Positions 5,746 through 56,500 of a stretch of DNA of 64,000 nt are shown here, in pieces (position 1 is the stretch's first letter; each line of letters starts with the position of its first letter). Origin of the DNA: Octopus vulgaris (taxonomy: Eukaryota); NCBI GenBank assembly GCA_951406725.2, contig OX597830.1, positions 45,136,001 through 45,200,000 of the forward strand, read 5' to 3'. Position numbers and translations under genes: made by a program. The notes under the pieces are model-generated. The model was not told the DNA's origin. It was given only the letters and a program-made list of their open reading frames with translations, and did no database searches.

Positions 5746-5796
5746 TTTGTCAGTGAAGAGGTCACGGTCTCAAAGCGACGAAAATATTTTGACAAA
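5746..5796 (+). ncRNA. Minimal type-I hammerhead-like motif with variant core (GTGAAGA) in a short repeat inserted among TA microsatellites
   Basis: TTTGTCA-GTGAAGA-g-GTCac..gcGAC-GAAA-ATAT-TT-TGACAAA: 7-bp stem I, stem II, palindromic stem III (AATATT). Confidence 0.5.
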
Positions 5797-8261
5797 TAAA
5801 ATTTAAATGTTGAAGTGAATCTAACGGTTTTGTGTGTTTCTTAAATGGCTTATAAACACTTTCCACGCTGCAATTGTTATATATATATATATATATATAT
5901 ATATATATATATATATATATATATATGTGTGTGTGTGTGTGTGTGTGTGTGTGTATGTATATTTATGTGTGGATTTGTATATATGTACGTGCGTATATGC
6001 ATCCTTCACACAGGTATGTACGTTTGTATGGGTATGTGTGTATATATATGTATGCATGTGTATGTATGTATATATATATAAAGTTAATCCAAACAAGAAA
6101 GCACAAAAAACACAACAACGCGAGGACGTAGAACAAATATAGTATTATTGGACGCTCAGGAGATATAAAGATATAAATGATTTAATAACATCTTGAGCAT
6201 TTGTCTCATTTTCCTATATATATATATGTGTGTGTGTGTGTGTGTTTGTTTGTATGTATTTATATGTATATATGAAAACATCCAATCTTTCACTATATTG
6301 AGTTGACATTTTCCATTCATTCATATATATATATATATATATATATATATATATATATATATAATTATAACTATTTAACTGTCCCTTTTCCGCATGTTAG
6401 AAGTCTGTATGGCGGTCTCCTCTCCGTGTATAAATTTATATATATATATATATACGGTGGTACGTTGGTGTAAATGGCTAGCGTATTGTCGCGGAATCAA
6501 AGAGATGTGGGTTTGAATCGTGCTGGATAACCCACTTTTTTCTGTCGAGGGCTTATATGTCCCATTATTAGACCATATTCTTTAATCATTGCACGGTGAT
6601 CGCTTACAAACTGTAAGCTTATAAAATACGATTATTATTATTATTTACAGAATTGCTAAAATCGACGCTGCACAACAGAAGCCATCGCATACGCACGCAC
6701 ACACACACACACACACACACACACACACACACACACACACACACACACACACACACACACACACACACACACACACACACACACTCACACTCACACACAC
6801 ACACACACACACACACACACACTCACACAATACATGATGTTCAATATACAAGTAAACCATGTTTTCCCAAGACCAGCTTCTCAGCAATCAATATAATTTT
6901 CTGATAATTTTTACAAAATTTGCTTCTATGTTTACACGAGTTTATTGTGTAATCACTGAAGCCATTGGTCTATTTTGGCCACTTAAACCTCGGTTAGCCT
7001 GATCGAGCAAACTGAAAATTAAAGGTGTTCCAACTATTGCCCTCTTTTCGTTTTAATTGGATGTAGGGCTACATTCTTCAATGTGTCCTTTCGTTACTTA
7101 CGACGGTGGAATATATTTGAGGGAATGCCGTGACTCTTTCTAGTATGTCTAGCTATTGCGTGGGCTTCGTTATGTGGTGTGCAGTTAACATTAGCCATTG
7201 CAATCATATACAATCATACTTCAAACGATTAATTAGTTCTTTGATCTAAATCCAGTGTCCTCCCCCTCACTCTTCCACTCCCAAGTTGAATAGTCAGAAC
7301 CATTCCCGTTTCTTGATATTTTATATTTACAAATACTTTTCTTCTATTTTTACTATCTTATATTTTAGCGCCACAGACAAATTTTCTGAGTTACTGGCAC
7401 AAAAAACACTATATATAGCATTTCTATATCTATTAAGTTGGATGGATGAAATGGTATTGATTAACATGTTTGTAAGACGTGTGTGTGTGTATGTGTGTAG
7501 TGAAGAAAAATGGTATTAAAGAATCCAAGCGTATACTTTATAAGCGCTCGGTTAACTAAACTGTCCAGTGAATGCAACAGTAATCCACGTAGATTATAAA
7601 TTCCCTTTCTACCAATTTGTAAATCCGAAGTTCAGACAATGAATTCAATTTAAATTCAGTGTATAATAGAAATCATTATTTTTTGTTTGTTCGTTGTCTA
7701 TAATTTGCATGTTAATCATTTAAATGCTTCCCCTGAGGGAGATAGTTTTTAACTAAGATATCAAGTTCTATCGTGCGAATGTAAATAACAAAAACAATGT
7801 CACATTTTAAACTTGAGAAAAGTTTTGCATATATTTGCTGTTCCACTTATGGATTCTATTTATAATGTGCGAGTTAGTTGATTGGTTACTTTTTTGGAAA
7901 GCCCTAGCTTATGTATGTATGTATCTATTATGCGTGTATGATTGTGTGATGTATGTACGTATGTATGCACATATGCATGTATGTATATATAAATATATGT
8001 ACTGCGTATATATGTATGCATTATGTGCCTATATGTATGTATGTGTGTGTGTATATATTCATACAGACACATACATACATACATTTGTGAAGAGGTAGAT
8101 TGATACCTGAAATATTTCTATTATAAGATTATTTTCACTATTTTCTTCTCAAATTCTACACTTTCAGCTCATTTTACTTTCGTTAGATTTAGCAATAGTG
8201 TCAAATAATAATAATAATAATAATAATAATAATAATAATAATAATAATAATAATAATAATA

Positions 8262-53500: not shown

Positions 53501-56500
53501 TTACAAATACCTTGCTTTTTTACAAAAAATCTAATGCTCTTAGCTTAGACTTTTTTCTGTTTTTTTTTTTTCCTGTCCCTCAAATTGTTATTTTTCCTGT
53601 CCGCCTTTGTATCGTCTATCTGTCCGAATGTTTTATTGTCCTCTATTGCGTTTTTGTTTCATTGTATGTATGTATGTATGTATGTATGTATGTATGTATG
53701 TATGTATGTATGTATGTATGTATGTATGTATGTATGTATGCATGTATGTATCTGTGCGTGTTTGTATCTATGTATGTATGTATCTGTGCGTGTTTGTATG
53801 TGTACGTATATATTTTTGTATTCACCCTAACACCAACGTTGAAAACCGGTATTGATTTATTTATCGCCATGTAACTTAGCAGTTCGGCCAGAGTAGCCGT
53901 TTGTGTAAGTACAAGACGTTAAAAAAAATAAGTACTGGGGTTGACCTGTTCGACTAAACAGTTTAAGGTGATGCCCCAGCGTGGCCGCAATCCAATGAGT
54001 GAAACAAGTAAAGATACCAAACGCTTCGTGTGGTTTAAAATGGGGTAAGTAAATCGTGAGAAATTTTGCTTCTATTTTAGCAGATTGAACAGCCACATAG
54101 AGGCGCACTATAAACATTATTGGGATGTTGTAATGACAAGCCTCTACCACTGAATATATACTACTACTACTACTACTGTTGCTGCTGCTGCAACCACCAC
54201 CACCACCACCACCACCACCACCACCACCACCACCACTACTACTACTACTACTACTACTACTACAGCTATTTTCTTTAAAGATCTCATTTTTCGGGATTAC
54301 ATCCCTTCCATAAGATTTAGACTAGATTTTCGAGTTACCTCCCCTGTTAAAGCATTTAATTGACTTTTATTACATAATGGATAAAAAAAAAACACCAGTA
54401 CCTCCGCCGCTTTCGCCATCGCCACCGTCATCATTACTACTACTACTACTACTACTACTACTACTACTATTACTACCCACCACCATATCAGTGCCATTGT
54501 GAATGGGAAAATCCAGTCGAAAAATAAGTGCATCTATTTTAAATTTTAAAATAGCATTCCGTCGGTTAAGGTAGCAGGGGTTCCTGTAGATGCAATCAAT
54601 GCAAGAACTTGTTCATGAAATTATCGTGCAAGTTGTTCTCATGGAGATTCAATGTGACACAAAATGTGACAAAGATGACGCTTTGAATTACAGGTACCAC
54701 TCATTTTTGCCAGCTGAGTGAACTGGAGCAACGTAAAATAAAGTGTCTTGCTCAAGGTCACAATGCACCGTCAGGAATCGAACTCACTACCTTACGATCA
54801 GGATCCGAGTACCCTAACCACTAAACAACTCACTTTCACCATTTTAAATTTAATGACTCAGAGAAAAGATACCCGATTGGGATCGGATATCAAACGTGTA
54901 GAAGCGTTGATACAAATATTGTAAATATATACAGTATGAAATGTTGATCTTATTAATTGTTATTATGTTTTCTTGTAATTAGTGCAGATGATGGCTCAAC
55001 CGGCTTTATGCAAGGCACATATGTGTTGGTCAACTATAATGGCAGTGTTCTCTGGCCAGTACCGGTCAAATTAAAAAGTTCCTGTAAAGTTGATATTACA
55101 TATTTTCCGTTTGATGACCAACAATGCATTTTACGATTCGGTTCCTGGATTTACAGCGGTTTATGGATCGATTATATAACAATGATGGAGGGTAACCCGG
55201 TCGATTTGACCACTTACGTCAATAACAGTGAATGGGATTTACTGGACATCAGACTGGACAAGAACATACGCACCCACTCCTGCTGTCCTGATCCTCACCC
55301 AGATATGACATACACTCTATACATTCGACGCCGAACTTTCTACTATATATTTAATATTATAATTCCCTGTGTGATGTTATCGGCATTGACGCTGCTAACA
55401 TTTTGGCTTCCACCAACGTCAGGGGAAAAGATCACCCTTGGTCTCTCAGTATTTTTAGCTTTTTCGATGTTCATGCTTCTTATTGCTGAACAAGTTCCAG
55501 CAACATCCGAGTCTGTTCCGCTTATTGGTAAGTATACACTTTTTCCCAAATATATTTTGAAGAAAATTGAAGGAGCTATAAAAATTGTTTGTAGAATTTA
55601 ACTCTAACGATATGTTTTGCATTACACCCTTCCGATAGAATTTGATAAGAAAAAAAATATTTTGAACGTTGATATTTTTTTTCTGATTTTCATTTCTATA
55701 AAATATCGAAGGAAGTCTAAGTAGATGCTCATCCGTCTAAGAAATAATTAGGGCTCCTCTACTATACATGAATATATGACGGAGTGGTATCTTTTTGGTT
55801 AGGTGTGACCACCACTGCTATTTTAGGCGCAGGCGTGGTTGTGTGGTAAGAAGCTTGCTTCCCAACTACGTGGTTGTCTGCTACTATAGCCTCAGGCTGA
55901 CCAAAGCCTTGTGAGTGGATTTGGTAGACGGAAACTGAAGGAAGCTTGTCGTATATATATATGGTAAATGTAGAACAGAAGATTGAACGTATGAGAACTT
56001 TTATAAATCAATCACGACAATTGTTTTGACACATCTAGTAATGATCCCTCACGGGTGGGACACTTAACAACCTGTTCAGGAGCATCCCGTGGTGTAGATG
56101 TGTCTCATCGGGTGGCAAATAAATAAAACTCGTTCAGATAACAGTTCCGCGATGAACCTTTTTATTTCGTAGATAGAAAAGCAACAGAACGAAGAAAATA
56201 TCTTCATTTATATAGAATATCAAAATCACAGATGCAAATAAGTAACGAACGCATAATATAGCGAGAAAAAATATCCGTTAACAGATATGGATGTATAAAC
56301 GCCCTCGCGCAAGTTGCATGGCGTGTGCACACTCGCTCATACAAGAATCCACGAAAATGTGAGCATACGCACACATGTGGTTTGGTGCACTCACGATCAC
56401 AAAGCGAGTTAAATAGCTATTTGGTATTTATAAAAATGGATAGGTTAAAGTTAAACTTAATTTATCCATGCCTTCAGTAAATTATGTTAACACTCATTCA

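Follow-up and report, generated by a model that had tools for sequence, protein, structure and literature searches.

Hammerhead-like modules with unusual cores in (TA)n-associated, probably Penelope-type repeats of Octopus vulgaris

Five short sequences scattered over one stretch of the Octopus vulgaris genome share the outline of a minimal hammerhead ribozyme, which raises the question of whether they mark ribozyme-bearing repeat families related to Penelope-like elements (PLEs) or only resemble them. The stretch, here called the window, comprises 64,000 nucleotides (nt) of contig OX597830.1 (positions 45136001-45200000), and its own genome (2.8 Gb in 227 contigs) was searched for relatives of each locus. 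An earlier note on the window had proposed that the five loci have a common layout and that many anonymous TA-embedded repeats may be non-autonomous, PLE-type or retrozyme-like families with lineage-specific core variants. The explanation favored here, with fair confidence, is that the five loci are mutated copies of high-copy repeats associated with (TA)n, and that four of the five families likely carry a Penelope-type minimal type-I hammerhead. The fifth is probably a foldback of PLE type, with a hammerhead-like box that has degenerated or arose by accident. The finding is therefore largely ordinary, consisting of decayed members of known Penelope-type hammerhead modules, except for some unusual core variants that are probably compensated.

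All five motif strings were found at the positions given earlier. A descriptor of the common layout (stem I, NNGANNA core, stem II, GAAA, tiny stem III, NUH, stem I') recovered loci 1, 2, and 4, so the layout holds for these three, and it missed loci 3 and 5. The modules, with their predicted cleavage sites, are as follows.

5746-5796, + strand: module of locus 1, TTTGTCA GTGAAGA GGTC..GAC GAAA ATAT TT TGACAAA, with helix I at 5746-5752/5790-5796, core GTGAAGA at 5753-5759, stem II region at 5760-5779, GAAA at 5780-5783, and an AATATT palindrome; predicted cut 3' of 5789 (+).
12710-12748, + strand: module of locus 2, CAGA CTGATGA CGAG..CTCA GAAA CTAG TC TCTG, with a helix I of 4 base pairs (bp), core CTGATGA at 12714-12720, stem II CGAG..CTCA, GAAA at 12735-12738, and an ACTAGT palindrome; predicted cut 3' of 12744 (+).
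51485-51522, + strand, with a mirror at 51431-51468, - strand: hammerhead-like box of locus 3, CTGT CCGATGA ACGGCAACGC GAAA CTCAGAG TA ACAG, with core at 51489-51495.
52847-52885, + strand: module of locus 4, TCA CTGAAAA GTT..GAC GAAA GAGC TT TGA, with core CTGAAAA at 52850-52856 (C3·A8), an extra G, a 5-bp stem II in which 4 pairs are formed, and GAAA at 52873-52876; predicted cut 3' of 52882 (+).
56114-56013, - strand: extended module of locus 5, CAC CCGATGA, a 77-nt stem II region, AAAA CAATTG TC GTG, with core CCGATGA at 56111-56105, stem II at 56104-56028 (G10.1-C11.1, 9-bp base), AAAA at 56027-56024, and a ACAATTGT palindrome; predicted cut 3' of 56016 (-).

Among these loci, only locus 2 has all the consensus core letters, C3 U4 G5 A6 N7 G8 A9, G12 A13 A14 A15.1, and U16.1 H17, and it carries a C/A mismatch at 10.1/11.1. 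Invariant core positions are changed in locus 1 (C3 to G) and locus 4 (G8 to A), and loci 3 and 5 read C4. Locus 5 has AAAA in place of the required GAAA, having lost G12 (A12). The stem II of locus 3 has only 2 bp with unpaired flanks, and the box lies within a perfect 150-nt palindrome (51402-51551) that is predicted to fold as a single hairpin of -134.9 kcal/mol.

Searches of the genome's own DNA placed all five loci inside high-copy interspersed repeats, designated f1 to f5 in the order of the loci. Downstream of every motif, at a distance of 42 to 212 nt on the strand of the motif, lies a (TA)n run. The repeat copies in the window are listed below, each with the number of first-look genomic candidates and their identity to the window copy.

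5724-5880, + strand: f1 repeat copy, its extent from genomic copy coverage, with a short central palindrome, the module, and an 80-nt tail into (TA)n from 5878; 2170 candidates, 95-97% identity.
12550-12930, + strand: f2 repeat copy, then (TA)n from 12923; 2662 candidates, 91-94% identity.
51350-51620, no strand assigned: f3 foldback repeat, with the palindrome 51402-51551, a longer right arm, and (TA)n from 51627; 817 candidates, 95-98% identity.
52820-53080, + strand: f4 repeat copy, with (TACA)n before it and (TA)n from 53099; 316 candidates, 71-80% identity, an old family.
55965-56330, - strand: f5 repeat copy of ~365 nt, with the module near its 3' end, a 42-nt tail, and a short (TA) run ending at 55962; 1807 candidates, 78-83% identity.

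Comparison of the window copies with their families changes the picture of the cores. Among 41 aligned copies of f1, the window copy included, 36 read GTGAACA, which places a G3-C8 pair in the core, and the pattern GTCANTGAANAGGTYGC has 8238 matches in the genome (control 2), with GTGAACA in 89 of the first 100. As GTGAACA is the family core, the GTGAAGA of the window is a copy-level change. The same copy also has a G-to-A change in helix II and lacks helices I and II in its minimum free energy (MFE) structure, while f1 copy L015 forms both. The majority core of f4 is TTGAAAA (U3-A8). The 20 parsed copies other than the window's (L222 among them) read T-A at positions 3 and 8 in 13 cases, C-A in 6, and A-A in 1, and the window copy is a seventh C-A. 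GTGAAGA and CTGAAAA, listed earlier among the variant cores, are thus not the main cores of their families.

Most of the 29 other aligned copies of f5 read GTCGAAAC, indicating that G12 was lost only in the window copy, and these other copies have a 5-bp helix I (ATCAC/GTGAT), G10.1-C11.1, and the ACAATTGT palindrome. Helix I of f2 has 5-6 bp in most copies versus 4 bp in the window, and the family core is canonical except for a C·A closing mismatch. This mismatch at 10.1/11.1 is the ancestral state, since 45 of 73 exact genome matches read C,A (20 read T,A and 8 something else). A strict hammerhead descriptor, defined below, is passed only by CpG-decayed T,A copies. No copy of f3 passes the strict descriptor, its stem II is not conserved, older relatives have no pairing stem II, and GAAA is preceded by G, C, T, or A depending on the copy. 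Identification of the f3 box as a ribozyme is therefore doubtful. Three helices open at helix I are present in typical genomic copies of f1, f2 (T10.1 copies), f5, and f4; f3, with its 2-bp stem II, lacks this arrangement, and the f1 and f4 copies of the window have it in weakened form. The window copies themselves would be dead relics with no expected function, given the loss of the 3-8 pair and of one stem II pair in f1, C3·A8 in f4, the missing G12 of f5, and the shortened helix I of f2.

The stem III palindromes read AAUAUU in f1, ACUAGU in f2, and ACAAUUGU in f5, and the stem III of f3 has an odd length with a central A. Predicted homodimer MFE structures pair the palindromes in the window f1 copy, in f5 copy L146, and in PLE copy L188, and leave them unpaired in f1 copy L015 and in both f2 copies.

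Evidence for conserved hammerhead structure comes from a module common to f1, f4, and a further family, f7, which reads GTCA NTGAANA G GTYGC loop GYRAC GAAA NNNN TT TGACAAA. Apart from this module, the elements of f1 and f4 do not resemble each other, and BLAST gave no match between them. A pattern search yielded f7 (L220 and L221), with the core CTGAAGA (C3-G8). In all three families, an unpaired G after A9 is followed by the stem II GUYGC/GYRAC. The letters at positions 3 and 8 are C-G in f7, U-A in the majority of f4, C·A in a minority of f4, and G-C in f1, such that one module occurs with three different Watson-Crick pairs at this tertiary contact. The C3-G8 pair has been confirmed, and an active G3-C8 variant mentioned, in the part of PMC3884650 consulted. 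A limited literature search found no report of a natural G3-C8 hammerhead family.

A family alignment with a stem covariation test, proposed earlier as a check, was carried out on this f1/f7/f4 module, and covariation was seen. The alignment held 30 rows, each kept only with at least three stem II pairs parsed, and L116, L117, and L121 were excluded from the count as spurious parser matches. Paired cells made up 77.3% of the total, compared with 25.6-45.3% when the partners were slid. Stem II was 88% paired, with a C-G/U-A exchange at one pair; the column pair 15.2-16.2 read GC in 20 rows and AU in 7; and the column pair 3-8 read UA in 13 rows, GC in 4, CG in 2, GU in 1, and other letters in 10. 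The covariation score was 0.202 against 0.136 +/- 0.010 for shuffled alignments, and none of 500 shuffles reached it.

Further evidence comes from sequence that was not selected for the families. The strict minimal-hammerhead descriptor demanded NUGANNA with an optional base after A9, a Watson-Crick pair at 10.1-11.1, helices I and II of 4 bp or more each, GAAA, an even-length palindrome spanning A15.1 to U16.1, and UH. Any letter was allowed at positions 3 and 8. It is passed by genomic copies of f1, f2 (T10.1 copies only), and f5. Flanks without relation to the targeted copies, 356095 bases in all, gave 4 matches to it versus a shuffle mean of 0.05 (20 shuffles) or 0.30 (10 shuffles), an enrichment of at least 13-fold. 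All 4 of these matches have a Watson-Crick pair at 3-8, compared with none of 4 shuffle matches (0/1 and 0/3 in the two sets). When position 4 was also freed, 8 flank matches were obtained and all 8 were paired at 3-8; the 4 additional matches belong to one family, f6.

The f6 module has the core CCGACGA and reads CCGACGA A GAGC..GCTC GAAA CG TT, followed by a ~110-nt tail and (TA)n; its stem II consists of an extra A and then GAGC/GCUC. Examples in the flanks are L046, L057, L060, L092, and L107, and the family was not found in the window. The f6 pattern has 13178 exact matches in the genome (control 0), and U4C is ancestral in this family, as 77 of the first 100 matches read CCG. The f5-type pattern has 98 matches, 56 with CCG and 42 with CTG. 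A canonical-core ancestor of f5 was considered and rejected, as the CTG copies are more CpG-decayed or come from other families. U4C thus recurs, being ancestral in f5 and in the unrelated f6. A natural viroid variant with U4C is described in the consulted part of PMC3088659 (Perreault et al. 2011) as weak in vitro and viable in vivo. The octopus families resemble this viroid hammerhead in having the single core change of U4 to C, and they differ in that the change is ancestral in families borne by animal retroelements, with ~100 (f5-type) to >13000 (f6) exact matches.

The link to PLEs rests on the layout of the repeats and on the PLEs of the genome itself. The GIY-YIG domain (PF01541) has 6136 candidates in the genome, many of them in open frames of 781 amino acids (aa), and the open reading frame (ORF) of L184 encodes RVT_1 and then GIY-YIG. 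At 12 of 30 PLE loci, the GIY-YIG match is followed ~0.45-0.95 kb farther 3' by a U3-A8 minimal hammerhead on the coding strand, which reads TTGATAA GGTTC..GAACC GAAA CATG TA/TT and precedes a ~75-nt tail and (TA)n. The order of module, tail, and (TA)n is common to the five window repeats and to the 3' ends of these PLEs. In addition, f1 and f3 occur as head-to-head inverted pairs that read away from a shared center; f1 forms many such pairs, and many of its other copies consist of a single arm with one end defined. Insertions of PLEs are reported, in the part of PMC8557442 consulted, to show 5' truncation, adjacent inverted 5'-truncated copies, 30-40-bp tails, and a bias toward microsatellites. 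In L182, an f3 copy lies inverted within the (TA)n of a PLE 3' end. A BLAST comparison of the families with PLE loci gave only this f3 copy beside a PLE, plus one 51-nt f1 match that is compatible with chance. The GIY-YIG match nearest to the window, at 44925968-44926231 (-) of the same contig, belongs to a 559-aa open frame and precedes the window by ~210 kb. The proposed linkage to Penelope thus has abundant PLEs, a like 3' layout, and inverted pairs in its favor, and lacks a PLE gene in the window.

Several other hammerheads were noticed near PLEs or in flanks. L186, oriented with GIY-YIG on the + strand, contains head-to-head hammerheads with the canonical core CTGATGA at 2729-2814 (-) and 3053-3138 (+), just past the PLE 3' end; each has a 59-nt helix II region and a ACGATCGT palindrome, and the two form a foldback insertion in the same (TA)n. 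Compact U3-A8 minimal hammerheads were found by chance in flanks at L029 1145-1186 (+) and L196 3203-3243 (-; GIY-YIG on +), with the cores TTGACAA and TTGATAA, a 5-6-bp helix I, a GC-rich helix II, and ACGCGT or ACATGT palindromes.

The minimal hammerheads of PLEs, in the portion of PMC4209133 consulted, have a short helix I, a long helix II, an unpaired base between 9 and 10.1, G10.1-C11.1, a palindromic 15.2-16.2/loop 3, and U3-A8 covariation, and they occur as dual motifs on opposite strands with low activity as dimers. The octopus families share many of the features described there (Cervera & de la Pena 2014): a short helix I, a longer helix II, and G10.1-C11.1; an unpaired base between A9 and 10.1 in f1, f4, f7, and f6; GAAA; a tiny stem III whose palindrome (A15.1..U16.1, then UH) points to dimers; motifs in duplicate on opposite strands; the U3-A8 core in f4 and in the genome's own PLE 3' ends; and thousands of mostly solitary copies in consensus families. 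In contrast, no mention of G3-C8 (f1, at least 8238 matches) or of U4C (f5, f6, and f3) was found in that portion of the paper, f5 and its sister family have a 70-80-nt insert in helix II, f2 deviates in its C·A at the closing position, and the window copies are defective.

Animal non-LTR (long terminal repeat) retrozymes, which are likewise short non-coding repeats with a type-I hammerhead (PMC7229834; 10.64898/2026.07.22.740005), offer another comparison, the f5 unit being ~365 nt long. These retrozymes have been proposed, in the parts of both sources consulted, to be non-autonomous derivatives of PLE pseudo-LTRs (PMC7229834; Li et al. 2026, 10.64898/2026.07.22.740005). Retrozymes there form tandem units and circular RNAs, whereas the window copies are solitary and the f1 and f3 pairs are inverted rather than tandem. 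No retrozyme-like tandems were found among the 98 f5-type matches, which are dispersed and have no ~360-nt spacing. Among Rfam families, all 4 scanned f5 copies match Hammerhead_1 (RF00163) at 18.5-26.7 bits (E 8e-4 to 0.43), below the gathering cut-off of 34, with three copies aligned over model positions 1-45 and one over 4-42. Elsewhere in the genome, 6 Rfam hammerhead matches lie above the cut-off, and three of these are the f5 sister family (L002, L003, and L006; 108 nt), which has an architecture like that of f5. The window loci and the f1-f4 copies differ from RF00163 in giving no match.

A number of results weigh against the favored explanation, beginning with the window itself. The relaxed descriptor of the common layout finds 24 loci in the window compared with 14.0 +/- 3.4 in dinucleotide shuffles, none of 100 of which reach 24. 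Ten decoy descriptors with permuted fixed letters find 14-24 matches in the real sequence versus 27 for the true descriptor at equal settings, and with a palindromic stem III required there are 3 matches in the window against 1.60 +/- 1.21, a count reached by 45 of 200 shuffles. A search with relaxed core positions, as suggested earlier, thus exceeds shuffled sequence, but decoys reach up to 24 and the palindromic version is not clearly enriched; the loose pattern in the window is not clearly above chance. The strict descriptor has 0 matches in the whole window, with no window copy passing, and every window copy is defective at one or more positions that hammerheads require. Rfam gave 0 matches over the whole window at the gathering score and no hammerhead family at E <= 10 in the five loci alone (740 nt in all) or in the scanned genomic copies of f1, f2, f3, and f4. 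Over the whole window at E <= 10, no hammerhead was among the best 150 of 377 matches, and those 150 were mostly microsatellite look-alikes of miRNA families.

Other points on the same side concern the families. In the covariation alignment, 10 of 30 rows are unpaired at 3-8, and there are few independent events because the rows come from three related families. Pairing at 10.1/11.1 shows no sign of selection in the 73 exact f2 matches, the stem III of f4, AGAGCU, is an imperfect palindrome, and U4C is reported to lower activity considerably in vitro, according to the part of PMC3088659 consulted. A long hairpin is predicted to form in foldback copies (f3 and paired f1) and would compete with the hammerhead fold. 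There is no reverse transcriptase or GIY-YIG ORF of at least 150 aa in the window, the five families were not found inside the PLE loci searched, and BLAST found no similarity between their tails and the PLE tails examined.

These results bear on three rival explanations. One is that the loci are chance look-alikes in unrelated AT-rich repeats, as the pattern NNGANNA ... GAAA ... UH is very permissive; ~14 matches per 64 kb in shuffles and 14-24 by decoys, the lack of an Rfam match at the five loci, the defects in every window copy, and the absence of a conserved stem II in f3 are all in keeping with it. Nevertheless, the family copies are more hammerhead-like than the window copies, the reverse of what would be expected for a selected chance match. 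Moreover, f5 copies match RF00163, matches to the strict descriptor exceed those in shuffles at least 13-fold, and association with TA runs singles out the loci of the earlier note in a layout as at bona fide PLE 3' ends: among the 24 loose matches, a (TA)6+ run lies within 215 nt downstream of the 3 that belong to those loci and of 0 of the other 21, with a base rate of 0.115. Chance resemblance is thus unlikely for f1, f4, and f5, and as an account of the whole it is very improbable. An even slighter chance can be given to foldback DNA transposons, similar to miniature inverted-repeat transposable elements (MITEs), moved by a Tc1/mariner-type transposase with a TA target, in which the hammerhead boxes would be passengers. 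The palindromic f1 pairs and f3, the insertions in TA-rich sequence, and a Tc1/mariner transposase ORF in the window at 26780-27787 would suit such elements. The many f1 copies that are single arms with one defined end would not, nor would the unequal f3 arms, which are as expected of an inverted 5'-truncated partner, or the palindromes that span the whole unit and not the ends alone. Bona fide PLEs in this genome also end in long (TA)n, and inverted pairs reading from a shared center are a published PLE pattern, as given in the consulted part of PMC8557442.

The remaining rival accepts that the modules descend from hammerheads and holds that they no longer cut, being relics or a structured 3' signal for the PLE enzyme, with the cores representing tolerated decay. 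It is unlikely, though less so than the other two. The U4C change that is ancestral in f5 and f6 is reported to reduce activity considerably in vitro (PMC3088659, in the part consulted), the C·A at 10.1/11.1 is ancestral in f2 with no selection for pairing, and, in the portions of the sources consulted, in vitro cleavage by the minimal hammerheads of PLEs is poor, dimers included (PMC4209133), and Naiad PLEs proliferate without canonical hammerheads (PMC8557442). On the other hand, a Watson-Crick 3-8 pair has been kept through three different base pairs in one module lineage, and it is difficult to account for the 8 of 8 flank matches paired at 3-8 with position 4 free unless the tertiary pair is under selection. 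Recurrence is also seen for G10.1-C11.1 and the palindromic stem III, neither of which the descriptor demanded in that form.

Under the favored explanation of Penelope-type modules, the hammerhead would cut the element RNA, probably only as a dimer formed via the palindromic stem III. Cleavage would have taken place in master copies, and the PLE reverse transcriptase/endonuclease would copy the non-coding repeats in trans into (TA)n. The suggestion that anonymous TA-embedded repeats are PLE-type families accordingly stands as likely for four families and as doubtful for f3, with mobilization in trans and cleavage being proposed steps. A likely identity for many of the anonymous short repeats found within (TA)n in this genome is that of 3' modules of Penelope-type elements with minimal hammerheads, and classifying them as such aids repeat annotation and explains why standard ribozyme models miss them. 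Of wider interest are the natural C-G, U-A, and G-C versions of the tertiary C3-G8 pair, with a C·A intermediate, in one module lineage, and a U4C core that recurs as the ancestral state in families whose exact matches number up to >13000. Cleavage by such variants, if it occurs, would be natural evidence on the core changes a hammerhead tolerates in vivo. A bolder and only tentative extension is that Penelope minimal hammerheads here work with supposedly crippling cores, C3-G8 having passed to U3-A8 and to G3-C8 via C·A in one module lineage, and U4C having become fixed in families of thousands of copies. If that were true, slow, dimer-only cleavage would be what retrotransposition selects, and the families would be a natural mutational scan of the hammerhead core.

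No run recorded as RNA was listed for window positions 5400-13100. Assembled contigs of four sequencing runs, only guessed to be RNA, cover the f1 and f2 repeats, with ends and strand not readable from the contigs. A few of these contigs join inverted arms, connecting 5733 with 5780, 5787, or 5790. Very high summed contig depth in the same runs was seen over other repeats at 5914-6170 and 8227-9768, with loose ends clustered at 6105-6107 and 6161.

Two neighboring features of the window encode recognizable protein domains.

26780-27787, + strand: 335-aa open frame with HTH_Tnp_Tc3_2 and DDE_3 domains, a Tc1/mariner-type transposase copy.
54957-55601, + strand: exon-like open frame with neurotransmitter-gated ion-channel ligand-binding and transmembrane domains.

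The f5 repeat lies ~360 nt beyond the ion-channel frame, and the f3 and f4 repeats lie 2-3.5 kb before it.

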